In this document: positions 1,121-27,064 of the stretch, in pieces
How the letters are laid out: each line of letters begins with the position of its first letter
Numbering within the stretch: the stretch's first letter is position 1
Assembly: GCA_965229715.1 (NCBI GenBank)
Contig: CBDDJL010000001.1
Span: 138,725 to 202,724 of the forward strand
Direction of reading: 5' to 3'
DNA length: 64,000 nt
Source: Rhodospirillales bacterium
GTDB taxonomy: Bacteria; Pseudomonadota; Alphaproteobacteria; Rhodospirillales; Casp-alpha2
Made by a program: the position numbers and the translations under genes
Notes under the pieces: model-generated
The model's database searches: none
What the model saw: the letters and a program-made list of their open reading frames with translations, nothing else
What the model was told of the DNA's origin: nothing

Positions 1121-2254
1121 ATGAGCTTCTTTCGACACCTCATAAACGCAATCGCGTTTCAACACCTGGAACGGACGCGCCGTCGGGTCATATTCTACTC
1201 CGAGGGCGGGCACGACTGGCCGCACTTGGAAGGCCTGCTCCGTGCCTGCCTTGCAGAAATCACCGGCGCGATTGTCTATTTGTCATCGAGCGACGACGAT
1301 CCCGGACTAACCATGACGGCGCCGAATCTGCATTGTTACGGTATTGGCGGTGGCCGGATTCGCGACTGGCTCTTCGAGCATATCGATGTCGACGTAATGG
1401 TGCTGACAATACCCGATATTGACAACTTTCAGGTTAAGCGCTCGCGTCACGATGTCCACTATGTCTATGTACAACACTCACTGGTCAGTCTTCACATGGT
1501 GTACAGGCTCGGGGCCTTCGATCACTACGACACGGTGTTTTGTGCCGGGCCGCACCATCGAGAAGAGCTCCGTACCATGGAACGCGTATACGCCACTGGC
1601 GCAAAAATCCTGGTCGATCATGGTTACGCGCGGCTGGATCAAATCGTCGCCGATCGTTTGACCCGGCCGAGACTGGTCAATTCCGACCGGCCACTACACG
1701 TTCTGATCGCGCCATCGTGGGGGCAGAATTGCATCATCGAATCAATGGGCGAGGACATTATCGACATTCTTCTAGCGGCGGGGATGCAGGCCACCCTGCG
1801 GCCCCATCCGCAAACGCTCAGGACCTCTCCGGCAACGATCCAAAACATTCGTGATCTTTTTCTTGGCCATCCGCTGTTCAAAATGGATTTCGACGTGGTC
1901 GGCGAGGAGTCGCTGCACCGGTCCGACGTCATGATCAGCGATTGGTCCGGTGTCGCGATCGAGTACGCATTGGGTCTCGAAAAACCGGTTGTCTTCATCG
2001 ATCTGCCTCGCAAGGTGAACAACAAAACGTACCACCGTGTCGGCCTAGAGCCGCTTGAGGTATCGATCCGCGAAAAGGTCGGCATTGTCATACCATCCGA
2101 CGATCTCGCAGGATTGCCGGGCACGATTCAGCGGCTTGTGGCGGAAAGTCCGCAATGCAACGACATTGGAAGCCTGCGTAACGAGCTGGTGTTCAATCTT
2201 GGGTGCCAAGACGACGTCGGTGCCCGATACATCGCTGCCCTGTTGGGAGAATAA
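1121..2254 (+). CDS. TagB/TagF-like CDP-alcohol (glycerol/ribitol-phosphate type) phosphotransferase family protein
   Basis: Motif order resembles the Glyphos_transf fold: HYVYVQHSLVS, LIAPSWG, LRPHPQT, MISDWSGVAIEYALGLEKPVVFID. ATG at 1121 (MSFFRHL); the ORF also opens at GTG 1079. It is convergent with the minus-strand operon. Confidence 0.6.
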   Translation: MSFFRHLINAIAFQHLERTRRRVIFYSEGGHDWPHLEGLLRACLAEITGAIVYLSSSDDDPGLTMTAPNLHCYGIGGGRIRDWLFEHIDVDVMVLTIPDIDNFQVKRSRHDVHYVYVQHSLVSLHMVYRLGAFDHYDTVFCAGPHHREELRTMERVYATGAKILVDHGYARLDQIVADRLTRPRLVNSDRPLHVLIAPSWGQNCIIESMGEDIIDILLAAGMQATLRPHPQTLRTSPATIQNIRDLFLGHPLFKMDFDVVGEESLHRSDVMISDWSGVAIEYALGLEKPVVFIDLPRKVNNKTYHRVGLEPLEVSIREKVGIVIPSDDLAGLPGTIQRLVAESPQCNDIGSLRNELVFNLGCQDDVGARYIAALLGE

Positions 2255-2315
2255 TGGATGCCGTTGCGGACATCCGGATGTCAGCGGCGCTCTTTGCGAT
2301 TTCACTTCTCGAATT

Positions 2316-3101
2316 TCAAGCGGGATCGACCGTGCAAAATGAGGAAAGGTTACCGGATTCTACCATTGCGTGGTAACATTCGAGGTCCTCGACCGTGTCG
2401 ACCTCGAGCCAGCCATTGGAAACGCCAACGGCCTCGACCGGCCAGCCGGCATCGATCAGCAACTGCAGAAAACTGGTCATGTACATACCGTCGAAGGGCT
2501 TGCCGTCAACTTCCAAAGATCGATCAAGGCCGTCGAAAAATGCCGTCATATCTCGAATCCTATCGCCACGAATCTTGATTAGCCCCGTGTACTGGCCCTG
2601 GATCTGATCGTATCTCTCTGGCTTCTTGCCGAGCTCGGTTACATATCCCTCGCGATCGATCAACAGTGTCTCAGCATCCGAAAGCGGGTCGTCCATCCGG
2701 CTTTCCCAGTAGCGGCGCCAGTCGAGATCGATCATCAAGGCAATGTCGGACCCGCAGTTCAAGACCGCCTGAAGATTTTCCGGTTGGTAGATAATATCAC
2801 CGTAGGAGATGACAAGATCGGTTTCGCCAACAAAAAACTGACGCGCGCAGAATAATGTTGCGACCATGTTGGTTGACGCAAACCTCGGATTGACGGTGAC
2901 GTCGACGCCAAGCGCCTCAATCTGTTCGGCTCGGTATCCGGCGGCGACGTGAATCGGTTCAACGCCGCATGCGCGAAGCACATCCATCTGTCTTTCCAAG
3001 AGTGACCGACCCAATAGCTCGACGAGACATTTTGGCCGATTATCCGTGAGGGGTCTCAATCTCTCGCCTTGACCGGCTGCCAAGATCAACGCTCGGGTCA
3101 T
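2316..3101 (-). CDS. LicC/Cj1416-like nucleotidyltransferase (cytidylyltransferase type)
   Basis: N-terminal NTP-transferase signature MTRALILAAGQGERLRPLTDNRPKCLVEL. Size is 261 aa. There is a 4-nt start/stop overlap with the upstream gene. Confidence 0.8.
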   Translation of the reverse strand: MTRALILAAGQGERLRPLTDNRPKCLVELLGRSLLERQMDVLRACGVEPIHVAAGYRAEQIEALGVDVTVNPRFASTNMVATLFCARQFFVGETDLVISYGDIIYQPENLQAVLNCGSDIALMIDLDWRRYWESRMDDPLSDAETLLIDREGYVTELGKKPERYDQIQGQYTGLIKIRGDRIRDMTAFFDGLDRSLEVDGKPFDGMYMTSFLQLLIDAGWPVEAVGVSNGWLEVDTVEDLECYHAMVESGNLSSFCTVDPA

Positions 3102-3730
3102 TTCAGGTACCGCTTCAAAAATGCAAGGTCTCTCTCACGTGGAGGATCTTCACGTTCCGGGTGCCACATGATTCCGGAAATCGCCAGCGAGTCGTGAACA
3201 AAGGCTTCGACATTTCCGACACCGTCGAACGCGACCGGCACAAACCCGTCGGCGACACCGTCTCCGGCAATCGTCCAGTCGTGAAAGCTGTTCACATGCA
3301 CGTCGATCAAGGGCTCGAAGCCACGTGCGACAGAGAGATCGTGTCGGCAACCGGCATGATTCGCAACGGCGACCAATGTGCCACCAAAATATACATTGAC
3401 GACCTGCATGCCGCGGCAAACGCCGATTGCCGGTATCGAACGCCTCACCACCTCGTCGAGCAGGGCAAATTCGAAAGCGTCGCGTTCGGGCGCGGCATCC
3501 GGCGATTTTGCATCGACGGCACTCAAGGAGTTGCCCCCACTGAGGATGACACCCGCAAGATCCATGGAGTCGAGATAATCGCCAACGGCGGATGGGTCGA
3601 TATTGGGAAGCGGCATCAGCGCGAACCCTAGGACTTGGCACATCGTTGACCATCTCTGGTCGAGACTGTCCCGCCGTTCGCCGCGGTCCGAGACGCTTAC
3701 GACGCGCTGCGTAACGCCAAGCCTCTTCAT
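3098..3730 (-). CDS. Class-I glutamine amidotransferase-fold / peptidase C26 gamma-glutamyl hydrolase family protein
   Basis: Nucleophile-elbow motif AIGVCRGMQVVNVYFGGTL and the His/Glu region ISGIMWHPERE. Translationally coupled on both sides by 4-nt overlaps. Confidence 0.8.
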   Translation of the reverse strand: MKRLGVTQRVVSVSDRGERRDSLDQRWSTMCQVLGFALMPLPNIDPSAVGDYLDSMDLAGVILSGGNSLSAVDAKSPDAAPERDAFEFALLDEVVRRSIPAIGVCRGMQVVNVYFGGTLVAVANHAGCRHDLSVARGFEPLIDVHVNSFHDWTIAGDGVADGFVPVAFDGVGNVEAFVHDSLAISGIMWHPEREDPPRERDLAFLKRYLK

Positions 3731-6717
3731 TCGACTTCCCTCAAAACCTGCCCCGCGCAGTCCAGATCGAGACGCCGCATCCGACAGATCCTCTCGTACA
3801 GCACGGTACCGACACCGATGGCTGCCGGCAGTCCGGTCTCAGCGGCGCGAATGGCCATATGCGAGTTCGCGCCGCCATACTTCGTGACCAATCCGGAGAT
3901 GTTCCGGCTCATAAGCCAATCGTAACCGGGATCGGCCTGCTCGATCACCACGATATGCCCGTCAATGTTTGACTTCGGCGACGAACCGTAGACGTGAACA
4001 GGTGCGACAGTTCGAATTTTCGAAACGAAATTTGGTTGCGCCAAGTGACGTTCGAAGCAGTAGAAGTCACCGGTTTCCCGGAGCAGCGGCGGCAGTTCCG
4101 CCAAGGCGCAAATCAGATGCTGCTGCTTACGGTCTTCCATTCGCTCACGCATGCCTTCGAGCGAGAGAGCGTTGAGCCGATATTGCTCCAAGTCGGCGAA
4201 CTCGACAAAGGAGAAGTCGTCGCGCGTGATACCCAGCAACTGGGCCAGTTCGACGAACGAATCCAAGGCATTGCTCAAGCTCCGTGTGAACTCAAGCTTG
4301 ACCCACTCCCTCGCCTCAATCGCCTCCCGAATGAACGAGATAAGGCGGTCCGGCGACCAATCCGACTCCAACTCTGTCAAGGCGCCCGCGATGGCTGACA
4401 GCTCGTCGTGTCGGAATTCAAACGGCGTCACATCCTCTTCTACCGCTTCGCCGCCGCCCGAAAAGTAGAAGTCAGGCGCCTCCCAGTATGCCGGGATGCA
4501 GATCTCGTAGGTTCCCGGGCGAAGATGGCCAAATCTCTCCAGGATGTCGTTGGGCGGTGTGGCGCCATCCCATCCCGTCGACCGGACAGCGCTAAACTCT
4601 TTGGATACAGTTCGGATGCCATGGAGGAACTGCTCGGTACGCTCCGAGCGCAATACACCGCAATTTTCAAATCCTCGAAGCATTTGGGTGGCGACGAACG
4701 CCGCCCTGGCGGCATGGCAGAAGGCCGGCGTTCCCAATGTCTTACAATCCTTTAGTAAGACGAGCGCGCGATCTAAGGGGGAAAGGTCGGATGACAATGT
4801 TTGTTTTCGCCGTCGATCTAGGTGCTGCAATGGCGCCGTGTCACCATATAGACGGCTCAATCCGTTTCGGGTTAGAACTTTGAGAGTCCCCTCAAGCACG
4901 TCGATGTCCTCGCTCGTCATACCACGCGGCAAAAGGCGCTTCTCAGCCACGTCTCGGAAATCGGGGGTCCATGCTGACAAGACGACAGCGAACTCGACCT
5001 TGTCGTGAAGTTCAGGATTTTCTGCGAGTATATTAAGATAAGCGTTGACCAGCCGACGGGCCGTGTTTTCGGGTAGGTCGGCCGGTACGAACGAGTTAAA
5101 ACTCGCGCGCACGTCGACGTAGGGTTGCCCAAGAAATGAACGGATCAATGGGTGCGATCGGACGTCCCGATAACCGTAGTCCGCCCGCTGCGCCGCCCAG
5201 ATGTCATCCGTGATAAGGTGACGATACAGACTGTATGCCAACGGTCGTGGTTGGACACCGATAATTTCGGCCGGATTCCAGTCTGGCATGTTGCCAAAGA
5301 TCGCACGTTCCCCGACCACGGACGGTACTTCATTTTGACACCCCTCGAACTCGTCGGCGCTGGATTCCAACTGGTGACGGAAACAATCGTCCTCAATTTC
5401 GAACGCGCTATGGTCAACGGTTATTGGCCGGACCTGAAAGACGAACACCTCGCCTGTCTTAGAGAGGGCGAACTCCACGTCCAGTTTGTCGTACCCTAAC
5501 AGCTGTTCGAGTTCGCGCACGGCGCAAAGCACCGGCATCAAGTGTGGCGAAACCTGTTCAAGCCGTTCCGATTGGAATCGACTGATCACCACCGCTGGAA
5601 GACCAACGCCAAGACCGCTGGTGACCGAGTCAACGACAGTATTGGCGCAGTCATAGTTGATGCAATAGTACGGCGCCCCGGTTGCCAGGCTCCGCGTCAA
5701 AACGACACCCGCGTAGGCGGCATTCTCTAGGAATTGCTGAATCAGAATTTGATCTGTGTCTGAGGCCGCGCCCCTATAGGAAGATCGGACCGCTTCGATC
5801 GCCTCCACCACATCGCCGCGGCTGAGTCCGTCGACGTTGACGACGCTTTCAAACCGGCCGGCGTTGGAGTTCTTCCAACCGTCTTCAGCAGCAGCGCTGC
5901 TTCGAACGACGAGTCTCGCTCCGTCGAATACCCGCTGAATCTCAGTAAGAACGCTTTCCGAATCGGAGTCCCACTTCCCGAGCGTGAACGCAACCTGACG
6001 ACCGATCGTCGATTTCTGAACGATCGATTCCAGACGAGAGAGAGTCTCCGCTTTGGTGCCAAGGATGAAACGGGCAAGGTCGGGCGGCTCGTTGAATTCG
6101 GCCCAATGACCCTCGACATCAACGATCCGCGGTACGAAACCCTGATCAACTAGGTGGTGAACGAGATCAACCAGGGTCGTGCCGATCTTGTCAGCGGCAA
6201 TGCTGGCGAGGTGTTCGACCACGTCAGGTCGAAAGCATGCGAGTCCGGCGAACTCGACCGTCCCGGTCATATGGTCGGAAAGCTGCGAAAGGTCGACGGT
6301 CTCGGCAATGTCCCGGTCGCTTTGCGGCCTGCCATCGAAACGGCGCTCCCACAGTGAATCGATGGCGATCGAGAAATCACCCCCGTCCCGGGCGAGTTCG
6401 CGGATCACATGGGGACGGAAAACTGTGTCCGAGTAACAAACAACCACCGTATCGCCAGAGAACGGTGCCGATAGAAACGTCTTGAGCACCGACCCGGTTT
6501 CCCAATCGGGAACCACTAGAACACTGAGATCGGGGTATCGGTCGATAACTTCCTCGACGTGATAGCCTCCGAGGAAGCGAATATGCGTCACCTCCTCCAG
6601 GTTCTCGAAACCGTGAAGTTGCCAGTCGATCGCGCGCGTCGTGGCATTGATTAACTTGAGCGCTGCTGGTTTGATGCCGCGCGACGGCCGGCCCGCACCT
6701 AGAAGATAAACATCCAC
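3727..6717 (-). CDS. 996-aa fusion: nucleotidyltransferase-like domain + PPDK/PEP-synthase-type ATP-grasp + swivelling phosphohistidine (PEP-utilizer mobile) domain; candidate amide/small-molecule kinase
   Basis: N-terminus MDVYLLGAGRPSRGIKPAALK. ATP-grasp region LVVRSSAAAEDGWKNSNAGRFESVVNV and IQQFLENAAYAGVVLTRS. C-terminus VTKYGGANSHMAIRAAETGLPAAIGVG. I recognised no PEP/pyruvate TIM-barrel domain. Confidence 0.8.
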   Translation of the reverse strand: MDVYLLGAGRPSRGIKPAALKLINATTRAIDWQLHGFENLEEVTHIRFLGGYHVEEVIDRYPDLSVLVVPDWETGSVLKTFLSAPFSGDTVVVCYSDTVFRPHVIRELARDGGDFSIAIDSLWERRFDGRPQSDRDIAETVDLSQLSDHMTGTVEFAGLACFRPDVVEHLASIAADKIGTTLVDLVHHLVDQGFVPRIVDVEGHWAEFNEPPDLARFILGTKAETLSRLESIVQKSTIGRQVAFTLGKWDSDSESVLTEIQRVFDGARLVVRSSAAAEDGWKNSNAGRFESVVNVDGLSRGDVVEAIEAVRSSYRGAASDTDQILIQQFLENAAYAGVVLTRSLATGAPYYCINYDCANTVVDSVTSGLGVGLPAVVISRFQSERLEQVSPHLMPVLCAVRELEQLLGYDKLDVEFALSKTGEVFVFQVRPITVDHSAFEIEDDCFRHQLESSADEFEGCQNEVPSVVGERAIFGNMPDWNPAEIIGVQPRPLAYSLYRHLITDDIWAAQRADYGYRDVRSHPLIRSFLGQPYVDVRASFNSFVPADLPENTARRLVNAYLNILAENPELHDKVEFAVVLSAWTPDFRDVAEKRLLPRGMTSEDIDVLEGTLKVLTRNGLSRLYGDTAPLQHLDRRRKQTLSSDLSPLDRALVLLKDCKTLGTPAFCHAARAAFVATQMLRGFENCGVLRSERTEQFLHGIRTVSKEFSAVRSTGWDGATPPNDILERFGHLRPGTYEICIPAYWEAPDFYFSGGGEAVEEDVTPFEFRHDELSAIAGALTELESDWSPDRLISFIREAIEAREWVKLEFTRSLSNALDSFVELAQLLGITRDDFSFVEFADLEQYRLNALSLEGMRERMEDRKQQHLICALAELPPLLRETGDFYCFERHLAQPNFVSKIRTVAPVHVYGSSPKSNIDGHIVVIEQADPGYDWLMSRNISGLVTKYGGANSHMAIRAAETGLPAAIGVGTVLYERICRMRRLDLDCAGQVLREVE

Positions 6718-6744
6718 GACAGAACAGGTTCCGAATATCGTGCC

Positions 6745-6963
6745 TCAGCGACCGTCAGTTTCTTCTTTATTGGACCCGCGCGAGAACAATGATTTGATTT
6801 TGTACCAGAAGGTCTTGAAGAAAAGCCCGACGGCAACGATCGTGCCGATGAGGGCTGACATGATGGCGCTGCCGGAGCCGGGATCAATATAGGCAGCCGC
6901 TTCGTCGGGCCCGATCACCCAACAGAACACGGCACCGAGCATTAAGATTGCGAGCCTTGTCAT
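6745..6963 (-). CDS. Small (72 aa) membrane/secreted peptide with a YIDPGSGS motif followed by a TM helix
   Basis: ATG at 6963 gives MTRLAILMLGAVFCWVIGPDEAAA (signal-like), then YIDPGSGSAIMSALIGTIVAVGLFF (TM), then a basic tail. The longest ORF opens at TTG 7023. Coding status rests on operon position and hydrophobicity pattern only. Confidence 0.45.
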   Translation of the reverse strand: MTRLAILMLGAVFCWVIGPDEAAAYIDPGSGSAIMSALIGTIVAVGLFFKTFWYKIKSLFSRGSNKEETDGR

Positions 6964-7029
6964 GGTCGTGTATTCGTCCCTCGTTGCGTCATGTGATTGA
7001 TAAGGTGGTACATCACCAAACAAACCGTA

Positions 7030-8433
7030 TCAAACAATCCTGAACCCCAATGCGGCCAAAACCTCGCTTTTTAACGCGTCGTGCATGAAATGGTAGGTTG
7101 CGCCTTCCTCGGCGTTTTGCGGCTGTCCCTCAAGGTTGCGAAGGCCTAGATTTGCTCGAATCGTTCGACGAAGCATGTCCGCGCGTAGCCACGGATCGAC
7201 AAAACTGTACAGCGTTCTGTACAGCGTTGGGATGTCGAACGGTTGTTCAATGTTACCGAAATCAAGCGTTGGCATCCAACGTCTGGCCAACACCACGCCC
7301 GTATCGATTCCGGCGCTCATGATGAACGCGCTAGCGGAGGGACGTCCATGGATCAACACTGACCACAACAACCCATCAGCACCGCGTACGTCGGGAAGGT
7401 GACCGGGGTGTATGTGCACCATCGGCTTTTCCGGATGGTCCAAAAGTGAAGAGGGAACGATCCCACCGCCCGTGTAGAGGAGCGTCGTACTTGGAAGCAT
7501 TGACAAATAGTCGCGCAACGTCGGATCGGAAAGGCCGTCAATGAAGAGTTTGTCGACACGATCGGTGTATGTTCCGACATCATCCAACCGGCCGGATCCG
7601 ATGATGAGATTGGCGGGCAACGCGAAACGGGCCGACAAGAGCTCGACAACATCTTCGACCAATTTCGGGTGCTTGCCAGCGAGACGCTGTGGCCAGTAGT
7701 GGATGCGGTTGCGTTGAACGCTGGCCGCGTAGTTCCGACGAAGCGAATTCGGCAGCCACCGACCCAATATTTTCCCATCCGTCACGTCCCGTTTCGCGGT
7801 GAGGATGGCAACTCGCTCCGGTCGGACTCCCATGAACCGCAGGACATCGAGATAGGCCCGCGCGATCGGGCCCTCATGAAACAACACCGTGATCGGGAGT
7901 ACGCTGCCCTGGTCGCCCGGTCCAGTCGCCTCAAGATCACTGACGTCGTCCTTTGCGGGCTCGTCGGACGGTAGCCGAGCGGACATGGTAGACAAACTCT
8001 GCCGCAGACTTTCGGTCAATCGGTGCACCGACTTGGCGGCACATCCATTTGCCAGATCGGCGGCCTTGAGCGCGGTATTGAGGCGGCTCATGGTGACAGG
8101 CGTCGCGCCGTTCACCGAAGCGGTGGCGTAGAATTTGACGAGGACAGCGAACGCAAGCGCCGACAATCGCAAATCAATCGTCCCAAGTTCGCGCAACGGC
8201 TTGCCGTCCTCACCATAGGCCACAAACAGTTCGCCATCGATATTGATTTGTTTTGAGAGGTGAGCCAACCGGCGAGTTTCCGTCGGACCCCAGTCCTGGT
8301 GCTCAGCCAGTCCGAGCAGAACGTCGGCCGTGTCGATTGGTACGTTGGTTTCCACTGGCCTAGATACGTCACCAGCCAATCCGTTAATCGCGGCGTCGAT
8401 TTCCGCCTGATCCATCAAGTCTCGACAATCCAT
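7030..8433 (-). CDS. Two-domain protein: unknown ~190-aa N-terminal region + formyltransferase-fold (Fmt/PurN/ArnA N-domain-like) C-terminal region
   Basis: TLLYTGGGIVPSSLLDHPEKPMVHIHPGHLPDVRGADGLLWSVLIHGRPSASAFIMSAGIDTGVVL parallels the formyltransferase core (xNxHPSLLPxxRGxxPxxWAxxxG...D.G). Confidence 0.55.
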   Translation of the reverse strand: MDCRDLMDQAEIDAAINGLAGDVSRPVETNVPIDTADVLLGLAEHQDWGPTETRRLAHLSKQINIDGELFVAYGEDGKPLRELGTIDLRLSALAFAVLVKFYATASVNGATPVTMSRLNTALKAADLANGCAAKSVHRLTESLRQSLSTMSARLPSDEPAKDDVSDLEATGPGDQGSVLPITVLFHEGPIARAYLDVLRFMGVRPERVAILTAKRDVTDGKILGRWLPNSLRRNYAASVQRNRIHYWPQRLAGKHPKLVEDVVELLSARFALPANLIIGSGRLDDVGTYTDRVDKLFIDGLSDPTLRDYLSMLPSTTLLYTGGGIVPSSLLDHPEKPMVHIHPGHLPDVRGADGLLWSVLIHGRPSASAFIMSAGIDTGVVLARRWMPTLDFGNIEQPFDIPTLYRTLYSFVDPWLRADMLRRTIRANLGLRNLEGQPQNAEEGATYHFMHDALKSEVLAALGFRIV

Positions 8434-8468
8434 TTAACAACCACGACGCCTACCCGCGCCAATAGACA

Positions 8469-9794
8469 CTAGACCCGCACAAGCTGCTGCTGAATCGTCT
8501 GCAGGATGTTGGCTATCATCCAGTAATAAACCATCGCGGCGGGGAACGGATAGAATAAGATCAAAAACCCTAGAGCCATCAGATATAGGTTTCGCTTCTG
8601 GCGACGAACTTCGATCTCAGGCGCATGAACATCCCGATAGGTGACGGTCGACGCTACGGTAACGAGAAACATGACCAGCGGCAAAAGGTTCAATGTCTCT
8701 CCTAAACCGGGGATACCGAAAGGCAACGCCGCAATGGCATCCGGGCGGGAAAAAGCCTCAATCCAAAGAAATCCGTCTTCGGCTAACCTTGGCATTTCGC
8801 CCAATGCCGCAAACACGGCAACGAGCACGGGAACCTGAACAAGGGACCCGAGCATCGGTCGCAACGTGTGGAACGGCGATATACCGAGCTCTTTGTGCGT
8901 GGCCATGACGCATTCATGGGCCTTCTGCCCGTCCAATGTTGCTTTGATTTCCTCTATTCTCGGCGCCAGGCGCGCCAGGTTCATACTGACCCGCCGTTGG
9001 GCGCGGGCGGTGAACAGACAGGCGGGCAACAACAAGAGCTTGAGCAATATGGCGAAGGTGAGGATCGACCAACCCCAACCAAGACCCAGCGCCGACTCGA
9101 TCCGCTCAAGAGACCACTCGACCATTTTCGCGAGTGCCGCCATCCAACTCCAGAGATTTGCGTACCGAAGGTCGGCAAGGTCGGCGTCCAATAGGGCCGC
9201 TTCTCGTTTACCCACCAGCCGCACGTCTATGCCGGGAGCATCGGAATGTCCCGCTTGGAGCACGATGCGCCCGTCCTCGAAGCGCGCGGTATCACCGGCT
9301 TGGAGTGCGAGGACAACGTAACGACCGACAATGACGAACCATGTTCGCTGGCCCAGTTCGACGGGATCGCCGGCTTCCCACTGGTGGATGTTCCCGTCTT
9401 GCGCAATTACCGCTGTGGGTTGGTTGTAGAAGGATGCCAACCCTTTGAACTCGGTGGAGCCGAGTTTCGGCAGTTTCCCAGGGTCGACAACCAGCTCCAC
9501 GTCGCGTAATGGATTTCGAGGCCCGGCAAACACGGCCTTTTGTCGGCATAATTCTCCGACGTCCGGCGCCTTGAGTGGCGCCAGCACGGCGTTCGCGACT
9601 TCGCCAATGTCAGAGACGCAAACTTCCGGGCTTACCTCAGCGGTAGCACCCCTGCCAATGGAGACAATCAACAGCGTTGCGACCAGGGTTACGACACCAA
9701 AGTCGATACGCCCAATCACCGCTTCATGACCCGAACTTGGCGGAATGGAACCCAAACGAGTCCGCATTCTGCTCCTCACTCGCATCGACCACAA
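8469..9794 (-). CDS. YidC/Oxa1-family membrane insertase paralogue (accessory copy)
   Basis: YidC core motifs are present: GWGWSILTFAILLKLLLLPACLFTARAQRRV, THKELGISPF, GSLVQVPVLVAVFAAL, LNLLPLVMFL, AAMVYYWMIANILQTIQQQ. An alternative GTG start at 9719 would avoid the 71-nt overlap with the upstream gene. Confidence 0.75.
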   Translation of the reverse strand: MWSMRVRSRMRTRLGSIPPSSGHEAVIGRIDFGVVTLVATLLIVSIGRGATAEVSPEVCVSDIGEVANAVLAPLKAPDVGELCRQKAVFAGPRNPLRDVELVVDPGKLPKLGSTEFKGLASFYNQPTAVIAQDGNIHQWEAGDPVELGQRTWFVIVGRYVVLALQAGDTARFEDGRIVLQAGHSDAPGIDVRLVGKREAALLDADLADLRYANLWSWMAALAKMVEWSLERIESALGLGWGWSILTFAILLKLLLLPACLFTARAQRRVSMNLARLAPRIEEIKATLDGQKAHECVMATHKELGISPFHTLRPMLGSLVQVPVLVAVFAALGEMPRLAEDGFLWIEAFSRPDAIAALPFGIPGLGETLNLLPLVMFLVTVASTVTYRDVHAPEIEVRRQKRNLYLMALGFLILFYPFPAAMVYYWMIANILQTIQQQLVRV

Positions 9795-11922
9795 TTCGGA
9801 TCATGTGTGATTGGGAAACGATGCTCCGGGGGACGTCGATCTCAATCACACCTTCGCGAACTGGCACGGTCATCGCCCACGCGGGCTCGTCGCTCTCCAC
9901 GACGTGAGCGTTGGCGCTAACATAGACGCGGGCCTCCACTTCGAACCTCGGATCGCTGTCCGAGGTAATCGCGACCTGTAGTCGCCCGTCGCAACCCACG
10001 CTGGCTAGTTGGACATGAAAGCCGCTTTCCGTAAACCACGAAGCCCACCGGTTGTAGTCGGAAAACCCATTGTTGAAACCGCTCGGATTGTCTGCCTCGT
10101 AAGACGCCCGACACTCTTCCACCACCGACAGCGCCTCCGCGGTGAGCGCTGCGTGAAGATTGTTCAAGAAATCGGGGCGTCGAAGCAGCACCAAGGGTTC
10201 GTGGGATCCGAACGAAAAATTTGATTTCTCGCTCTCGACCACGAAGTAGAAGGCTTCTGACTCGGGCGGTACTTCCAGATCGGGCGCCAAGAGATCGAAC
10301 CCCGGGTAAACCGAACAGTCGCCACCAACGCCGGAGTGCAAACAGAGGGTTCTTGCCAGATCGTCCGTCATCACAGGTTGGTCGTTGAAACCGATCGCTT
10401 CCTGAGTCTGCCGCGCACCCTTGACCATCAACAACGGCGTGTAACGACCGTAACCCCAGTCTTTGTGCCCCCGGATACGGAAGGATACAAGCCTGGCGGG
10501 ATCGTAATACCTTGCGGGACGACCGTGGTCACTTTTTAATATGATAATGGACTGGTCGTAGATCCCGAGTGACTTCAGTTTCTCTACGAACAGACTCATT
10601 TGGGTTAGCATGCAGAAAGATTCTTTCTGCATGCCAACGTCATTCTGGTGATTGCTAAACCAGTCCGTTCCGACATCGTACAGATTGCAGTCTTCGTCGA
10701 TGTTGATCGGATAGTGCGTTTGGTAGAAATGCAGGAAGTGCGCCACCTTCCGATCGCTGCCGACCTCTAGACCACTGACATACTGGTTGTAATCCGACAC
10801 CGAGGAATATTTCAACTGCGCGTTCCAAAGGCGGTTCTCGAAGTTCCAACCTGCGAGCGCAAACATCTCGTTCGGCAGCTCGAACTGATCGAGGACCAAA
10901 CGAACCAAAGTATCGAAATCGATAATCATCCCGACCTTGCGTAGTGCTCGGACAGTGTAATTGGTACCGATTCTCAAGGTGACGTATCGGTATGTATTGA
11001 TGACGGCAAAAGTCTTTTGGTGAAGTCCTTCCGCGCTCAGATCGCCGATCGCGAACCGACGTTCGGGGTGACGAAATCCCCTCCCGTAGTCGAAGTAGGT
11101 GGAAACGCGATAACCGTTATCGTTCAGATAGTTCGTCATCAAGCGGTCGGGTGCGATGTCTCGCATCTCGAAATCGGTCTCGGCCTTGAGCTTGAAGTTC
11201 TGGTTACCGTAGAGTTCGCCGGAGAGCGACGCGACGGTGGCCGGTGAACTGGTCGAAACGTCGTCGAACACGACGAAGTCCTTTAGGGATGGGAACTGGC
11301 CCCCATGCTTGCGAAGCGTGTTCACGTATACGTCGCGTGACAACCCGTCGAAGCTTATCGTGAAGATGTTCATTTCGTCGGAGACGCGTAACAATTCCGA
11401 AACCGCGTCATCATTCGAGATGGTCTTGGGCTTCCACGCTGCGTAGAGTTCGTGGAATGCAAGCGCCGAAACCGCGGCATTGACCAACAGGACAGTCGCG
11501 ATCCCTGCAAGTATAATACGCCGGACTCGGCTCTGCAGTAGTAACGTCCCAATGCCGGCCACCGCCAAAGCCGTCGCCAGTCCGGTCCGGTCAACCGGAT
11601 CGGATATAGGATCGATTAACATGCCACCGCCCTGCGTCACCGGCGAAAACAAACCCGCGATGAGAATGAACACGAAACCGGCATCGATCAGGATCGACCA
11701 AGCGGTCAGCATGCCGACGCGGCGCGCAACGTGATCGGCGAGCAGTAGAATCAAGAATACGGCGCTGACTGCGACGACCATGCACACGAACGCCACACCG
11801 ACGTCGAGATGCTGATAGTCGGACGGGTTCCGACTGACCAGAAAACCCGGGACGACGAAAAATAGCAGAAATGGGATGCTGGCCAGCTGAAGGTGACGCT
11901 CAATAGAATTACTGTTTCTCAT
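9724..11922 (-). CDS. Polytopic membrane protein with alkaline-phosphatase-superfamily (sulfatase/LtaS/EptA/OpgB-type) periplasmic domain; phospho-substituent transferase candidate
   Basis: The N-terminal ~170 aa form several hydrophobic helices. The soluble domain has NIFTISFDGLSRD and the family-typical IIILKSDHGRP motif. First gene of the minus-strand operon. Confidence 0.7.
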   Translation of the reverse strand: MRNSNSIERHLQLASIPFLLFFVVPGFLVSRNPSDYQHLDVGVAFVCMVVAVSAVFLILLLADHVARRVGMLTAWSILIDAGFVFILIAGLFSPVTQGGGMLIDPISDPVDRTGLATALAVAGIGTLLLQSRVRRIILAGIATVLLVNAAVSALAFHELYAAWKPKTISNDDAVSELLRVSDEMNIFTISFDGLSRDVYVNTLRKHGGQFPSLKDFVVFDDVSTSSPATVASLSGELYGNQNFKLKAETDFEMRDIAPDRLMTNYLNDNGYRVSTYFDYGRGFRHPERRFAIGDLSAEGLHQKTFAVINTYRYVTLRIGTNYTVRALRKVGMIIDFDTLVRLVLDQFELPNEMFALAGWNFENRLWNAQLKYSSVSDYNQYVSGLEVGSDRKVAHFLHFYQTHYPINIDEDCNLYDVGTDWFSNHQNDVGMQKESFCMLTQMSLFVEKLKSLGIYDQSIIILKSDHGRPARYYDPARLVSFRIRGHKDWGYGRYTPLLMVKGARQTQEAIGFNDQPVMTDDLARTLCLHSGVGGDCSVYPGFDLLAPDLEVPPESEAFYFVVESEKSNFSFGSHEPLVLLRRPDFLNNLHAALTAEALSVVEECRASYEADNPSGFNNGFSDYNRWASWFTESGFHVQLASVGCDGRLQVAITSDSDPRFEVEARVYVSANAHVVESDEPAWAMTVPVREGVIEIDVPRSIVSQSHMIRIVVDASEEQNADSFGFHSAKFGS

Positions 11923-12731: not shown

Positions 12732-13355
12732 CTAGATGTCGACCCGCTCCGCAATCTCGATCGCATCGTCAACTTCAATGCCGAGATACTTCACTGTGCT
12801 CTCGATCTTAGTGTGGCCAAGGAGAAGTTGAACCGCTCTAAGATTCCCGGTCTTTCTGTAAATCAATGATGCCTTCGTGCGCCGAAGTGAATGGGTCCCA
12901 TAGTGGAGCGGATCCAATCCGATGCTGCGGAGCCAAGTCGATACGCGACGGGCGTACTGTCGTGTCGAGATCGGGTGGTCCGGCTGGCCACGCCCCGGAA
13001 ACAGGTAGGCGCTGCGGCATTGCACCCGCCCGGATAGATAGTCGTCAACTGCGGCGCGTGTCTGATCCGTGATTTCGAACGTAACCGGTCGTCCCGTCTT
13101 GCGTTGTCGAACTGTCGCCCGATCTGCTGCTCGACCGTGCGGCGAAATGTCTTCGACCGTCAGTCGGACGAGGTCGCAGCCGCGTAGCTTGCTGTCGATC
13201 GCCAAGTTGAACATCGCCAGGTCGCGGGTCCGACCATCCATCTGCAATCTTGTCCGAATGGCCCAGACATGCTTGGGCTTCAAAGGTGGCTTCTGCCCAA
13301 TGATCTTACCCTTGTTCCAGGGCACATGAGGCAGCTTGGCGTTGGTGAAGAACAT
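12732..13355 (-). CDS. Short tyrosine recombinase / phage-integrase-family protein (catalytic domain only, 207 aa)
   Basis: C-terminal catalytic signature HSLRRTKASLIYRKTGNLRAVQLLLGHTKIESTVKYLG (H-x-x-R ... H ... Y), with an upstream Arg in SKLRGCDLVRL. Confidence 0.85.
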   Translation of the reverse strand: MFFTNAKLPHVPWNKGKIIGQKPPLKPKHVWAIRTRLQMDGRTRDLAMFNLAIDSKLRGCDLVRLTVEDISPHGRAADRATVRQRKTGRPVTFEITDQTRAAVDDYLSGRVQCRSAYLFPGRGQPDHPISTRQYARRVSTWLRSIGLDPLHYGTHSLRRTKASLIYRKTGNLRAVQLLLGHTKIESTVKYLGIEVDDAIEIAERVDI

Positions 13356-13461
13356 GGTCTTTCTCCTCTCTGGTTGGAAAGACCATGAAGCCTAGGCGAT
13401 TACCCAATCGGCCCGTCAGGTTAGGGCTGGAAAACCGAAACATCTGGAAACCTAAGGTTTG

Positions 13462-15166
13462 GTCTGCAAATGACCCTGGCTGTGTAAAAACGATTTGCTT
13501 TCGTGATGTCTGCTAGAATCTCGCTGACGAACTCAGTGAGGTTTTGATGAAGCGGTTTGTTGAAGGTGTGTCGCGTGATCAGGCGAGCTTTCTGCCGGAA
13601 TGCCTGGACGACTTCGTCGGCGAGGACAATCCGGTCCGGGTTGTCGATATCTTTGTCGATGAGCTTGATCTTCGGAGTCTGGGGTTCGAGCGGGTCGATC
13701 CGCGCTCGACGGGGCGGCCTGGCTATCATCCGTCGGGACTGTTGAAGCTCTACATCTACGGTTACCTGAACCGGGTGCAGTCGAGCCGCCGGCTGGAGCG
13801 CGAGGCGGGCCGCAACGTGGAGGTCATGTGGCTGACGGGCCGGCTGGCTCCCGATCACAAGACGATCGCCGACTTCCGCCGGGACAACGGTCCGGCGATC
13901 CGCAAGGTCTGCGCCCGGTTCGTGGAACTGTGCCGCACGGTCGGGCTGCTGGCCTCGGCGAGCGTCGCCATCGACGGCTCGAAGTTCAAGGCGGTCAACA
14001 ACCGCGACCGCAACTACACGCGGGCCAAGATGCAGCGGCGCATGGCGCAGATAGAAGAAAGCGTAGCCAGGTATCTGCACCAGTTGGACAGCGCCGACCG
14101 CCAGGAACCGTCGGAGGCGATGGAGGGTAAGGTTGCCCGCCTGACGGAAAAGATCGCCAGGCTGAAGAGCGAGATGCAGCGCCTGCGGGGCCTTGAGGAA
14201 CGCATGTTTGCCGCGCCGGACAAGCAGATCTCGCTGACCGATCCGGATGCGCGCTCCATGGCGACCAGTGGCCGGGGCTCAGGTGTGGTCGGCTACAACG
14301 TCCAAGCCTCGGTCGATACCGAGCATCACCTGATCGTCGATCATGATGTGACGACTGCGGGCTCCGACCGGGCACAACTGGCGCGTATGGCGGCGCGGAC
14401 GAAAGCCGCCCTTGGGGCCGACACATTAGATGTGGTTGCCGACCGGGGTTACTTCTCCAGCGAGGAGATATTGGCCTGCCACGAGGCGGGTATCACCGTG
14501 ACTCTGCCCAAGCCGATGACATCGGGCAGCCGTTCCAAGGGACGCTTCGTGAAACAGGACTTCCGCTACGTCTCTGATGACGATGTCTATGTCTGTCCCG
14601 CCGGCGAGCGCCTCACCTATCGCTACACCAACGAGGAGAAGGGGCTCACGCTGAGGCGTTACTGGTCGAACGCCTGCTTGAGTTGCGCCATCAAGCAGCG
14701 TTGCACCACGGGCCGCGAGCGCCGCATCACGCGCTGGCAGCACGAACACCTGGTCGATGCCGTTCAGCACCGGCTCGACCGAGACCCGGACGCGATGCGA
14801 AGACGGCGCGAGACCGTCGAGCATCCCTTCGGCACCATCAAGGCCCGCATGGGCGCAACCCACTTCCTGATGAAACGGCTCAAGAACGTGCGCACCGAAA
14901 TGGCGCTCCACGTGCTCGCCTACAATCTGACCCGGGTCATCAACATCCTCGGCACCGGCCCACTGATCCGGGCCATGAGGGCCTGATAGGCCCCACTGCG
15001 CCTGCCCAAGGCCGAAAAACCACCGCTCAGACCGTTAACGGACCAAATATTCAGCCCGCTCGCGCCGATATCGCATTATCCCAATCAATCAGCCGTCGAT
15101 CACGGTCCGCCAGACAACTCACCGCCCAGCCAAAACGTTTTCACACGACCAAGACCCAAAGCGGAA
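13462..15166 (+). mobile_element. IS1182-family insertion sequence, copy 1 (1,705 bp if the right end is placed by IR alignment)
   Basis: The left boundary is defined by where copies 1 and 2 start to be identical (GTCTGCAAATGACCCTGG...). Identity with the other copies runs to ...GACCAAGACCC (15157). The last 9 nt differ between copies. Confidence 0.85.
13544..14986 (+). CDS. IS1182-family DDE transposase (480 aa)
   Basis: N-terminus DNPVRVVDIFVDELDL...GRPGYHPSGLLKLYIYGYLNRVQSSRRLEREAGRNVEVMWLTGRLAPDHKTIADFRR, then a central coiled-coil-like stretch, then VVADRGYFSSEEI. The translation is identical in copy 2. Confidence 0.9.
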   Translation: MMKRFVEGVSRDQASFLPECLDDFVGEDNPVRVVDIFVDELDLRSLGFERVDPRSTGRPGYHPSGLLKLYIYGYLNRVQSSRRLEREAGRNVEVMWLTGRLAPDHKTIADFRRDNGPAIRKVCARFVELCRTVGLLASASVAIDGSKFKAVNNRDRNYTRAKMQRRMAQIEESVARYLHQLDSADRQEPSEAMEGKVARLTEKIARLKSEMQRLRGLEERMFAAPDKQISLTDPDARSMATSGRGSGVVGYNVQASVDTEHHLIVDHDVTTAGSDRAQLARMAARTKAALGADTLDVVADRGYFSSEEILACHEAGITVTLPKPMTSGSRSKGRFVKQDFRYVSDDDVYVCPAGERLTYRYTNEEKGLTLRRYWSNACLSCAIKQRCTTGRERRITRWQHEHLVDAVQHRLDRDPDAMRRRRETVEHPFGTIKARMGATHFLMKRLKNVRTEMALHVLAYNLTRVINILGTGPLIRAMRA

Positions 15167-16063: not shown

Positions 16064-16152
16064 TGTTTGTGTGAAAAGAGAATTCTGACATATTCATTTT
16101 CTGTGGGCGGAGGGCGAAAGATCGATTGGCGCCTCAATCGCATGGAGATCGA

Positions 16153-18114
16153 ATGCCTCAATCATTTCCAACGCTTTTTTCTCCAATTGATGTCGGCAAC
16201 ATGACCGTCAAGAACCGTGTGTTCCTTCCTGGACACGCGACGCGTCTTGCCGAAGCAGACGGTACTGTCGGTGATCGAATCCTCGCCTACCACAAGGCAA
16301 GAGCGGAAGCCGAAGTCGGAATGATCGTCACCGAGGTGAACTGCGTTCACCCGTCATATCTGCCGCCAAATCGTCTCAGCGTTACCTCGGATGATTGCAT
16401 TCCGGGATTGGCCAGGCTCGCCAACCTGGGGAAGCCCTACGATTGCCGGATCGTGGGGCAACTATTCCATCCCGGACGCGTCGCGGGGTTTTCTGCCGAC
16501 GGGTCGGTGATGGCGACGTTTGCGCCATCGGAAGTCGCGGACGAATTCTACAAGAACATTCCCAATCCACTCACGAACGGCCAGGTCTGGGAGATCATCG
16601 AGGCATTCGGGGATGGCGCACGTCGGATGGCCGAGGCAGGACTTGATGGCGTCGAGCTGCTGTCGAGCATGGGCTACCTGATCTCGCAGTTCCTCAATCC
16701 GCGCCTAAACCTTCGAGCCGACGAGTTCGGCGGCAATCCCGAGAACCGGCTGCGCTTCCTGCGAGAGATTATAGCGAACGTGAGGCAGAAGGCAGGCAAC
16801 GAGATCGTCCTAGGCATCCGCATCTCGGTCGATGAGATGGACGATACGGGGCTCCATCCGGACGAGGCCCTCGAGGCGCTGAAGCTGATCGATCAGGACG
16901 GCAAGATCGACTATGTCAACGTCATCGCGGCGACGACCGCCAGCTATGACGGGTGGATGCACATCGTGCCCCATATGGTGATGCCGAGTGCCTATATTGT
17001 GCCGCAAGCCGCCGCCGTGAAATCTGTCGTTTCGGTTCCTGTCCTCGTGGCGGGCCGCATCAACCAGCCGCAGGATGCCGAGAAGGTCCTGGCGAGCGGC
17101 GAAGCTGACATGACCGGCCTGGTGCGCGCACATATTTGCGACCCGGCCTTCACTAAGAAGGCGAAAGAGGGTCGCACCGACGATATCCGTGCCTGCATCG
17201 CCTGCAACCAGGCCTGTATCGGACACGGGCTGAAGGGATTCTTCACGTCATGTATCCAGCATCCCGAAACCGGCCGCGAGCTTCAGTTCGGACACAAGCA
17301 GAAGACCGAGAATCCGAAGCATGTCCTTGTCATCGGCGGCGGACCGGGCGGCATGAAAGCGGCCGTGACCGCGGCGGAGAGAGGTCATCGGGTAACACTC
17401 TGCGAAAAGGCGAACCGCCTGGGCGGACAAGCACTTCTGGCGCAACTGTTGCCCGACCGCAGCGAGTTCGGGGGCATCATCACCAACCTGGAACACGAGC
17501 TCAAACGCTTCGGCGTCAAGGTGCAGTTGGGCGAGGAGGTGACCTTGGAGAAGGTCACCGAAATGAACCCCGACGCAGTCATCGTTGCAACCGGCGCAGT
17601 TCCGATGCTCCCCGAGGTCGACGGCCTGGATGAACTGCATGTGGTCGACTCCTGGTCCGTCATACGCGGCGAGGCGAACGTCGGATCGTCCGTCGTCATC
17701 TGGGACTGGCGATCGGACTGGGTCGGCCTTGGACTGGCACAGATGCTCGCCCAAAACGGATGCAACGTGCGCCTTGCCGTCAACGGCATCGTTGCCGGGG
17801 AGAGAATCCCAGCAATGGTTCGAGATTACGCCGTCGGCGAACTGCACAAGTTGGGGGTCGAGATCGTTCCGTATGTGCGGCTTTTCGGCGCCGATACCGA
17901 TACCGTCTACTTTCAGCACGTGACAAGCAAACAGCCGGTCATCATGGAGAACGTCGATACGCTGGTGTCTCATCATGCGCCGAGACGAAACGCCGAGCTT
18001 GCGGAGGCGCTGCGCGCTATCGGAATAGAACCAATCGTCATCGGCGACGCTCTCAGTCCGAGAACGGCTGAAGAAGCAGTGCTCGAGGGTCTCAAAGCGG
18101 GTGTTGCAGTATAG
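16153..18114 (+). CDS. OYE-like FMN domain + [4Fe-4S] + FAD/NAD(P) domain oxidoreductase (2,4-dienoyl-CoA reductase / N-methylproline-demethylase-type)
   Basis: MPQSFPTLFSPIDVG...KNRVFLPGH, CIACNQACIGH and VLVIGGGPGGMKAAVTAAERGHRVTLCEKANRLGGQ. ATG 16153 is preceded by GGAG and aligns with the paralogue's start at 37269. Confidence 0.85.
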   Translation: MPQSFPTLFSPIDVGNMTVKNRVFLPGHATRLAEADGTVGDRILAYHKARAEAEVGMIVTEVNCVHPSYLPPNRLSVTSDDCIPGLARLANLGKPYDCRIVGQLFHPGRVAGFSADGSVMATFAPSEVADEFYKNIPNPLTNGQVWEIIEAFGDGARRMAEAGLDGVELLSSMGYLISQFLNPRLNLRADEFGGNPENRLRFLREIIANVRQKAGNEIVLGIRISVDEMDDTGLHPDEALEALKLIDQDGKIDYVNVIAATTASYDGWMHIVPHMVMPSAYIVPQAAAVKSVVSVPVLVAGRINQPQDAEKVLASGEADMTGLVRAHICDPAFTKKAKEGRTDDIRACIACNQACIGHGLKGFFTSCIQHPETGRELQFGHKQKTENPKHVLVIGGGPGGMKAAVTAAERGHRVTLCEKANRLGGQALLAQLLPDRSEFGGIITNLEHELKRFGVKVQLGEEVTLEKVTEMNPDAVIVATGAVPMLPEVDGLDELHVVDSWSVIRGEANVGSSVVIWDWRSDWVGLGLAQMLAQNGCNVRLAVNGIVAGERIPAMVRDYAVGELHKLGVEIVPYVRLFGADTDTVYFQHVTSKQPVIMENVDTLVSHHAPRRNAELAEALRAIGIEPIVIGDALSPRTAEEAVLEGLKAGVAV

Positions 18115-21513: not shown

Positions 21514-21527
21514 ACGCTGATTTTGGA

Positions 21528-27032: not shown

Positions 27033-27064
27033 GCTCGTCTCCTGTCAGCGCCGACAACGGGCTT

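Follow-up and report, generated by a model that had tools for sequence, protein, structure and literature searches.

An eight-gene island in a Rhodospirillales bacterium that may encode a variant of the Campylobacter phosphoramidate pathway

A 64,000-nucleotide stretch of the genome of a Rhodospirillales bacterium, hereafter the window (positions 138,725 to 202,724 of contig CBDDJL010000001.1, assembly GCA_965229715.1), carries an island of genes at 1121-11922 that resembles the Campylobacter jejuni pathway for O-methyl phosphoramidate (MeOPN), Cj1415-Cj1422. We lean towards the reading that this island is a variant of the Campylobacter pathway, which would make cytidine diphosphoramidate and put an unmethylated phosphoramidate on an envelope glycan. 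A preliminary description of the window had proposed a Cj1416/Cj1417/Cj1418-like triad, and the kinase domain, hydrolase and cytidylyltransferase encoded here are indeed end-to-end orthologues of the Campylobacter proteins (36%, 32% and 43% identity, respectively, to the proteins of a Campylobacter-type locus), arranged in the same order and with their catalytic residues kept. The decoration of glycans with groups containing a phosphorus-nitrogen (P-N) bond is treated in the searchable literature as essentially a Campylobacter speciality (PMC6429109).

Judging from orthology, the glutamine-kinase-like enzyme would convert glutamine to N5-phospho-glutamine while ATP is turned over to AMP and Pi, the cytidylyltransferase would join L-glutamine phosphate and CTP to give cytidine diphosphate (CDP)-L-glutamine, and the C26-type hydrolase would cleave off glutamate and leave cytidine diphosphoramidate. 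We consider it quite probable that this series of steps, from glutamine through N5-phospho-glutamine and CDP-glutamine to cytidine diphosphoramidate, operates in the island. A TagF-family enzyme would then let a sugar or other hydroxyl attack the beta-phosphorus of the CDP donor, so that CMP leaves and an unmethylated phosphoramidate ("phosphoramide") remains on an envelope glycan.

The kinase, hydrolase and cytidylyltransferase

The kinase fusion gene occupies 3727-6717 of the minus strand in the open reading frame (ORF) map and encodes 996 amino acids (aa). Residues 213-996 (3727-6081) form a glutamine-kinase-like domain with an ATP-grasp part, a helical middle and a swivelling phosphohistidine domain bearing the motif GGANSH953MA. 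Pfam recognised PPDK_N at residues 267-314 (E 3.9e-10) and PEP-utilizers at 919-984 (E 4.2e-13) and detected no phosphoenolpyruvate (PEP)/pyruvate-binding (TIM-barrel) domain, in agreement with the domains first proposed. The NCBIfam model NF004508/PRK05849 scored 903 bits (cut-off 501), with residues 213-995 covering model positions 5-788 of 789, and the models for PEP synthase, rifampin phosphotransferase (RPH) and PigC each gave less than 50 bits. The protein thus groups with glutamine kinases and not with PEP synthases or antibiotic phosphotransferases. By these profile matches, the kinase domain is an orthologue of Cj1418 in the L-glutamine kinase family.

Campylobacter-type references were taken from metagenome contigs found with a published cj1420 polymerase chain reaction primer (PMC3907429). 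This search recovered two contigs of 28% GC. The first encodes two methyltransferases, a 781-aa kinase, a 202-aa class-I glutamine amidotransferase (GATase) and a 253-aa nucleotidyltransferase in the Campylobacter order, and the second encodes two proteins of 612 and 625 aa that are MeOPN transferases (NF058596). The reference kinase scored 1113 bits on NF004508/PRK05849, and the reference GATase reached 316 bits on its own family, NF045546, which is equivalog level. The island kinase domain aligns end to end with the reference Cj1418 orthologue (805 aa, E 1e-157). Its phospho-accepting His953 is invariant in 37 homologues, and GGANSHMA is identical in the Campylobacter-type protein.

The whole-chain fold predicted by AlphaFold for the 996-aa protein best matched the three-domain RPH. 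A kinase acting on some other substrate (another amide, an antibiotic, or pyruvate as in PEP synthase), and so leading to a different CDP-activated group, would fit this match, the identity of only 36% to the Campylobacter enzyme and the diversification of the family that the extra domain reveals. It would also fit the lone kinases found without GATase or nucleotidyltransferase partners in Cupriavidus and Microvirga. The RPH match, however, reflects only the shared three-domain fold, because searches of the PDB returned no glutamine-kinase structure and no structure of Cj1416, Cj1417 or Cj1418. The island kinase has the ATP-grasp and swivelling phosphohistidine domains of the RPH/PEP synthase superfamily, yet it differs from RPH, PEP synthase and PigC in its low scores on their models, in having no TIM barrel and in its entirely different partner genes. 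Those partners, a gamma-glutamyl-type hydrolase and a Cj1416 orthologue, are invariable and therefore favour glutamine as the substrate. We regard a different substrate as very unlikely.

The GATase (peptidase C26) gene at 3098-3730 (minus strand) encodes a 210-aa protein, a probable gamma-glutamyl-CDP-amidate hydrolase and Cj1417 orthologue. Pfam assigned it to Peptidase_C26/GATase. Its best family is NF045546 (gamma-glutamyl-CDP-amidate hydrolase) at 110 bits, about 70 bits ahead of the next family at 42 bits, and it aligns with the Campylobacter-type protein over 210 aa (E 3e-32). In this alignment the catalytic triad of Cys (VCRG), His and Glu (WHPE) is kept. Neither a signal peptide nor a transmembrane (TM) segment was predicted for it. 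The LicC-like cytidylyltransferase gene at 2316-3101 (minus strand) encodes a 261-aa Cj1416 orthologue with the canonical motif AAGxGxRLxPLTxxxPK. It matches NTP_transf_3 in Pfam, its closest solved relative is LicC (1JYK), and it aligns with the Campylobacter-type Cj1416 orthologue over 249 aa (E 2e-74). The class assignments originally given to both proteins were borne out.

The three genes are translationally coupled. The kinase/GATase junction (3727-3730) and the GATase/cytidylyltransferase junction (3098-3101) are each a 4-nt ATGA start/stop overlap (...cgaATGAag... and ...tgaaATGAcc...), exactly as first mapped. According to the ORF map and domain matches, the triad is the distal part of a tightly spaced minus-strand operon of seven genes. 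ORFs were called in 83 loci with a fused kinase and searched with the proteins of the window. The order kinase-GATase-nucleotidyltransferase was kept across many phyla in every surveyed locus long enough to show it, so the position of the GATase between kinase and cytidylyltransferase is conserved.

The fused nucleotidyltransferase-fold domain

The island kinase differs in architecture from the single module of about 770-790 aa found in Campylobacter, as it bears an additional 212-aa N-terminal domain (residues 1-212, 6082-6717, minus strand). The preliminary description had named this Cj1416-like extension as a departure from Campylobacter, and the comparison with the 781-aa reference kinase confirms it. 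Pfam did not detect anything in these 212 residues. They align with the stand-alone 261-aa nucleotidyltransferase of the same island (BLASTP E 7e-10), and in an AlphaFold model (pLDDT 84) the region matches sugar-phosphate nucleotidyltransferases, with Foldseek hits to ST0452, RmlA, MurU and KdsB. The nucleotidyltransferase-like nature proposed for the domain is thereby upheld.

Conservation of the domain is strong, with G7, G9, P11, D97, W205, E207 and N209 invariant. Compared with Cj1416-type enzymes, its signature carries a 5-residue deletion in the GxGxR...PK loop, and the lysine of "PK" is replaced. It is only 23% identical to the Campylobacter-type Cj1416 orthologue (E 1e-5), as against 43% for the stand-alone protein. 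The sequences clearly identify the stand-alone enzyme as the orthologue of Cj1416, with the fused domain as an extra, divergent paralogue. The domain may serve in docking or channelling, sense nucleotides or carry out a second catalytic step; more speculatively, it would bind nucleotide or act as a dock and so link the kinase with the cytidylyltransferase.

The fusion had been called new, a view that must be abandoned. At least 2,284 proteins match the 996-aa protein, and among the best 120 of them 117 measure 984-1,024 aa and cover 99-100% of the query, while three are shorter at 929-966 aa. The nearest relatives come from metagenome-assembled genomes (MAGs) of Rhodospirillales and Magnetovibrio. 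In a HMMER search with the kinase domain alone, 1,506 representative clusters (50% identity) were found at E <1e-30; of the best 150, 119 have an N-terminal extension of 160 aa or longer, and in 30 the kinase comes first. The fusion is therefore the majority architecture among the nearest relatives and is not new to databases.

A scan of 185,579 species-representative genomes, one per species, confirmed relatives of the 996-aa protein in 360 stretches. The best 80 of these match from residues 1-17 or carry the extension, apart from cases truncated by contig ends. They came from Alpha-, Beta-, Gamma- and Deltaproteobacteria, Flavobacteriales, Nitrospinaceae, Dadabacteria, Chloroflexota, Acidobacteriota, Actinomycetes, Bifidobacteriaceae, Cyanobacteria, Spirochaetales, Pelagibacteraceae and haloarchaea. 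The scan returned only fused relatives and no Campylobacter.

The TagF-like protein and the transfer step

Several components of the Campylobacter pathway have no counterpart here. No ORF similar to the adenosine phosphosulfate (APS) kinase-like protein Cj1415 (PRK05541) was found among the window ORFs of at least 70 aa (phmmer, two queries), nor did PRK05541-type queries detect a Cj1415-type kinase in any of the fused loci that they were run against, up to 10 kb from the fused kinase. Methyltransferases of the Cj1419/Cj1420 type were likewise missing among the window ORFs of at least 70 aa (phmmer). The first account had reported neither an APS-kinase-like gene nor any methyltransferase in the window. 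For these specific types that statement stands, and for methyltransferases in general it was covered in part, as Pfam was applied to about 38 window ORFs. The Campylobacter MeOPN transferases are DUF2972 proteins (NF058596, CJJ1420_fam), and with two of them as queries no relative was found among the window ORFs or in the loci L001-L089. The "CGPTase" of Campylobacter, which a paper title suggested as the MeOPN transferase, was rejected, as that paper deals with a different gene. Because a DUF2972 relative and a Cj1415-type kinase are both missing, the variant departs from the Campylobacter scheme both in how the donor is processed and in the transferase.

In place of the DUF2972 transferase the island has a TagF-family gene on the plus strand at 1121-2254, whose product (377 aa; PF04464, GT-B fold) is the candidate phosphoramidate transferase. 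Its ORF has two possible starts, at 1079 (391 aa) or 1121 (377 aa), the second being the public gene call. The match of the window protein to PF04464 is marginal (22.6 bits, cut-off 22.1). The family has 2,511 matches, and PF04464 is recorded for nearly all of the 120 best homologues. For an AlphaFold model built with 33 homologues (pLDDT 92), the best fold match in the PDB was TagF 3L7K (E 7.6e-11), with generic GT-B enzymes and capsule polymerases resembling TagF ranking next. The motifs LRPHP and SDWSG are conserved, and H119, H125, H145, H146, H167 and H229 are invariant.

Co-occurrence was counted with an iterated TagF-family profile in 85 fused loci, namely the window, two plasmid loci and 82 of the 83 surveyed loci (one truncated locus had no ORF). 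A TagF-like gene is present in 55 of the 85 and in none of five plasmid loci with an unfused kinase. Its usual place is immediately downstream of the nucleotidyltransferase gene, co-directional and often overlapping with it. These counts and the TagF fold support the earlier suggestion that the gene, convergent with the triad in the window, may encode the transferase. In TagF chemistry a hydroxyl attacks the beta-phosphorus of CDP-glycerol and CMP leaves. By analogy, this is the reaction that transfer of P(O)(O-)NH2 from cytidine diphosphoramidate would need. Like the TagF/TarF CDP-glycerol glycerophosphotransferases, the island enzyme has PF04464, the GT-B fold, motifs of the family type and a proposed CDP-X reaction. 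Unlike TagF, it is 14% identical and has no CDP-glycerol or CDP-ribitol genes alongside, its proposed donor would carry NH2 in place of glycerol, and its sequence gives no sign of polymerase activity. A 3'-phosphorylated donor would not be needed, because no Cj1415-type kinase accompanies the fused form. On the strength of association and chemistry, we find TagF-type transfer of unmethylated phosphoramidate from a non-3'-phosphorylated CDP donor to a glycan hydroxyl somewhat probable.

The surroundings of the module in other genomes bear on the acceptor. A four-gene version lies in Wzx/Wzy loci of Shewanella (S. pealeana) and Vibrio parahaemolyticus. The ihfB-wzz O-antigen region houses the eight-gene block in Pseudomonas marginalis and Pseudomonas sp. 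BR20, where CDP-dideoxyhexose genes are its neighbours, and in Marinobacter the module adjoins genes for the core of the lipopolysaccharide (LPS). These settings point to envelope glycans as the targets. In this the system resembles that of Campylobacter, both being located in surface-glycan loci or moving between them.

An ordinary glycerol- or ribitol-phosphate transferase unrelated to the triad might also explain the TagF-like gene, the product of the triad then being used by another transferase or being a soluble metabolite or natural product. Enzymes with PF04464 are common in capsule and O-antigen loci, unfused triads occur in apparent small-molecule contexts (e.g. on an Agrobacterium vitis plasmid), and the window gene stands on the opposite strand beside an insertion sequence (IS) element. 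The absence of a TagF-like gene within 10 kb of about a third of the fused loci would fit as well. On the other side, the gene lies directly downstream of the cytidylyltransferase gene from Proteobacteria to Actinobacteria and Cyanobacteria, it is a specific subfamily, about 50% identical across hosts, that travels with the module, and Pfam and NCBIfam found no gene for CDP-glycerol or CDP-ribitol synthesis in the 11-kb island. We judge this explanation unlikely.

Another order of events would start from the same genes and associations, as sequence does not fix whether hydrolase or transferase acts first. The triad would make CDP-L-glutamine, the TagF-like enzyme would transfer phospho-glutamine, and the GATase would act later on the glycan or salvage the donor; the end group would be N-phospho-glutamine, or phosphoramidate reached by the other step order. 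TagF enzymes normally transfer a phospho-alcohol with a sizeable substituent, which would suit this order. In the Campylobacter biochemistry summarised in PMC6429109 and the Borg preprint, however, the hydrolase acts on the nucleotide, and the island GATase, which lacks a signal peptide or TM segment, is coupled between kinase and cytidylyltransferase just as it is in Campylobacter. Transfer of phospho-glutamine thus appears improbable.

A number of points weigh against phosphoramidate transfer by the island. The P-N chemistry attributed to this variant's enzymes derives from homology, and the donor could be CDP-glutamine instead of CDP-amidate. At 110 bits, the GATase lies below the NF045546 equivalog cut-off of 250. 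The GATases from the Azospirillum and Deltaproteobacteria bacterium Smac51 loci, which do have an APS-kinase-like gene and Cj1419/20-type methyltransferases, reach only 75-107 bits, and the cut-off is therefore lineage-specific and not a functional boundary. With its short loop and without the usual lysine, the fused N-terminal domain may lack activity or have an unexpected function. Transfer of phosphoramidate by a TagF-type enzyme would be without precedent, as the known Campylobacter transferases belong to another family, and the fused loci without a TagF-like gene (e.g. most of those in Marinobacter) mean that TagF is not the sole possible transferase. The window gene is inverted relative to nearly all other loci and lies directly behind an IS5 transposase, so its co-expression with the operon is uncertain; a promoter scan found no sigma-70-like promoter near it. 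Finally, no glycan genes were found in the remainder of the window, and no acceptor-building genes are nearby.

Loci with an unfused kinase offer some observations of their own. On A. vitis plasmid pRvVAT039a (L086, 4107-14015) genes for LysE and a CDP-alcohol phosphatidyltransferase come after an unfused triad of kinase, GATase and cytidylyltransferase, with TauD, asparaginase and aminoacyl-tRNA-ligase-related genes as neighbours. CDP-alcohol phosphatidyltransferases are another enzyme class that uses CDP-X donors directly. The product there may be a small-molecule or lipid P-N compound rather than a glycan decoration. Plasmid p6 of Azospirillum lipoferum 4B (L084, 5641-15107) has a Campylobacter-type set made up of an unfused kinase, a GATase, a nucleotidyltransferase, an 846-aa protein with a C-terminal APS-kinase domain and a Cj1419/20-type methyltransferase. 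Proteins with sulfotransferase domains adjoin, which hints at a 3'-phospho-CDP-amidate used by sulfotransferase-fold enzymes. On a plasmid of Deltaproteobacteria bacterium Smac51 (L087) two paralogous 413-aa proteins without a Pfam or NCBIfam match (7739-8980 and 12935-14176) flank an unfused triad, in a locus that also has APS-kinase and methyltransferase genes; they are candidates for yet another transferase family. On the Campylobacter-type metagenome contig (L091, 5729-8256) phosphonate-synthesis genes come after the Cj1416-like gene, namely one for a cytidylyltransferase-PEP mutase fusion and one for a phosphonopyruvate decarboxylase. These phosphonate-type genes occupy the place where a Cj1415-like kinase was expected.

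The island, its accessory proteins and its significance

The unit had been described as the triad plus the TagF-like gene. Four further genes, tightly packed on the strand of the triad, lie upstream of it at 6745-11922, and the functional unit here is an eight-gene mobile island (1121-11922), not four genes. This set of eight, TagF-like gene included, is found together in seven further loci, which belong to Pseudomonas spp., Vibrio hepatarius and MAGs of Polarisedimenticolaceae and Thioalkalispiraceae. Near-complete sets are found in a Magnetovibrio MAG and another Vibrio. The additional formyltransferase-like, YidC-like, LtaS/EptA-like and small membrane proteins set the island apart from the Campylobacter pathway.

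The gene next to the kinase (6745-7023, minus strand; probable start 6963) encodes a small membrane protein with a signal peptide ending in A-x-A, an invariant mature N-terminus Y[IL]DPG[ST]GS (YIDPGSGS in the window), one TM helix and a basic tail. A single-pass search found its family in 23 loci, most often with the gene just ahead of the kinase or behind the TagF-like gene. A count of 44 loci from an iterated hidden Markov model was discarded, since TagF ORFs had been picked up, probably via a fused or overlapping ORF. The small protein could be a subunit or even the acceptor.

The formyltransferase-like protein (7030-8433, minus strand) was recognised by a weak Formyl_trans_N match in Pfam and by PDB sequence matches. 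It combines a variable N-terminal part of about 175 aa with a conserved C-terminal part of about 290 aa; the nearest solved relatives in a PDB sequence search were the FDH N-domain, PseJ and PurN. The motif HIH336PGHLPxxRGAD and D371 are invariant in 35 homologues. Such a partner occurs in 28 of the 83 fused loci. It is fused to a C-terminal class-I S-adenosylmethionine (SAM) methyltransferase in an Actinomycetes MAG (L072:15891-17909), a Bifidobacteriaceae MAG (L073:8025-10061) and two Acidimicrobiia MAGs (L080:15964-17766 and L082:9470-11188). Nine loci have an unrelated methyltransferase gene between those for GATase and nucleotidyltransferase. Through the SAM methyltransferase fusions, the formyltransferase-like enzyme is linked to modification of the very group that Campylobacter methylates.

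The YidC/Oxa1-like membrane protein (8469-9794, minus strand), a paralogue, matches 60KD_IMP (E 7e-27) and TIGR03592 (107 bits), and a gene of this kind stands beside the module in 20 of the 83 fused loci. With a TTG start at 9794, its ORF shares 71 nt with the end of the LtaS/EptA-like gene upstream, and the true start probably lies further downstream. In Colwelliaceae/Alteromonadaceae (L076:6564-8954, L013:15726-18140 and L049:15766-18183) a protein of 796-805 aa, in which an N-terminal YidC-like domain is joined to an uncharacterised C-terminal part of roughly 590 aa, adjoins the TagF-like gene.

The gene at 9724-11922 (minus strand) encodes a polytopic membrane protein with four predicted N-terminal TM segments and an extracytoplasmic domain of the alkaline-phosphatase superfamily (LtaS/EptA-like; weak Sulfatase match in Pfam). 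In seven close homologues D192, T229 (in P-A-T-x-A-S), H398, H403 and D465-H466 are invariant, and the gene is found in 27 of the 83 fused loci. A sequence search of solved structures gave only a non-significant LtaP match.

In a more speculative extension of the pathway, the formyltransferase-like protein would tailor the same group, and the YidC-like, LtaS/EptA-like and small proteins would handle a step on the periplasmic side. Such N-tailoring and periplasmic roles for the accessory proteins seem to us doubtful. The island has a formyltransferase-like enzyme that may be compared with the N-domain of ArnA in the ArnA-T aminoarabinose pathway, and, like the EptA/LtaS/OpgB transferases, it has a polytopic alkaline-phosphatase-superfamily enzyme with an invariant Thr, together with small or insertase-like membrane proteins. 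Unlike true members of those systems, the island proteins share only the superfamily level, with no detectable membership, and no lipid-carrier transferase was recognised. The likeness to periplasmic envelope-modification systems is an idea, not a finding.

Taken further, the island might be a new kind of self-contained, horizontally mobile envelope-modification system. Cytidine diphosphoramidate would be made in the cytoplasm and its phosphoramidate N-tailored by the formyltransferase-like enzyme, with the fused methyltransferase also methylating it in other hosts. The TagF-like enzyme would load the group on a membrane carrier or acceptor, and the LtaS/EptA-like enzyme, aided by the YidC-like and YIDPGSGS proteins, would finish the modification in the periplasm. 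We think this rather doubtful. If true, phosphoramidate or N-acyl-phosphoramidate decoration of LPS or other envelope molecules would be widespread in bacteria and haloarchaea, and the orphan "phosphoramide" groups of Shewanella and Xanthomonas LPS would be explained too.

The island is bracketed by IS elements among catabolic genes. On one side an IS5-family transposase is encoded in two frames (DUF4096 and DDE) at 131-1073 on the plus strand, and the TagF-like gene begins 48 nt past the end of this transposase ORF. On the far side lie a 207-aa phage-integrase fragment (12732-13355, minus strand) and a second DDE transposase (13544-14986, plus strand). The IS-bracketed block and the inverted TagF-like gene indicate a mobile island with local rearrangement. 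No convincing inverted or direct repeats able to explain the inversion were found, and promoter and terminator scans were uninformative, the one hairpin (2256-2275) not being above chance. From the IS5 element, the integrase fragment, the other IS, the catabolic setting, the inverted TagF-like gene and the lack of a promoter-like site near it, one could suppose that the island arrived recently, was partly disrupted and is now a passenger without expression as a functional system. Yet all eight ORFs are intact and of full length compared with homologues, the translational coupling is kept, and the GC fraction of 0.564 is close to the 0.584 of the rest of the window; we hold a disrupted passenger to be extremely unlikely.

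The remainder of the window is catabolic. It has three paralogous Oxidored_FMN plus Pyr_redox_2 genes, similar to 2,4-dienoyl-CoA reductase (16126-18114, 33997-36018 and 37269-39227), and two Rieske oxygenase alpha subunits (20356-22649). A beta-oxidation set and SBP_bac_5 transporters are also present (25230-30360).

All computational tests set beforehand as able to refute the proposed variant of the Campylobacter pathway came out in its favour, and the idea therefore survives. Many of these proteins already bear the name "glutamine kinase" in IMG through KO transfer, so the homology itself was known to databases. In a literature search the fused form, the TagF partner and the eight-gene island were not found described, and only the Borg preprint mentions homologues outside Campylobacter. 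Unmethylated phosphoramide substituents have been chemically documented in the LPS of Shewanella MR-4 and the lipooligosaccharide of Xanthomonas campestris (PMC3210612, PMC8042644). By analogy, these groups are the kind of product that the variant would make.

The biosynthetic core of the pathway is far more widespread than Campylobacter, as the 360 stretches in 185,579 genomes and the roughly 1,500 clusters at E <1e-30 attest. Most carriers have it in the other configuration, in which the kinase bears the extra fused domain, the transferase is of the TagF type, a 3'-phosphorylating kinase is missing and a formyltransferase-like partner is frequent. If our reading is true, these genes would be candidates for the unexplained phosphoramide groups of Shewanella and Xanthomonas LPS, and P-N groups would be predicted on the O-antigens or capsules of Pseudomonas, Vibrio parahaemolyticus, Shewanella, Marinobacter and haloarchaea. 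There they could matter for recognition by phages and serum, as MeOPN does in Campylobacter. The pairing of a CDP-amidate with a TagF-like enzyme would also provide enzymology and glyco-engineering with a simpler donor and transferase. The enzyme set is directly testable and, if the proposal holds, implies that P-N decoration of glycans is widespread.

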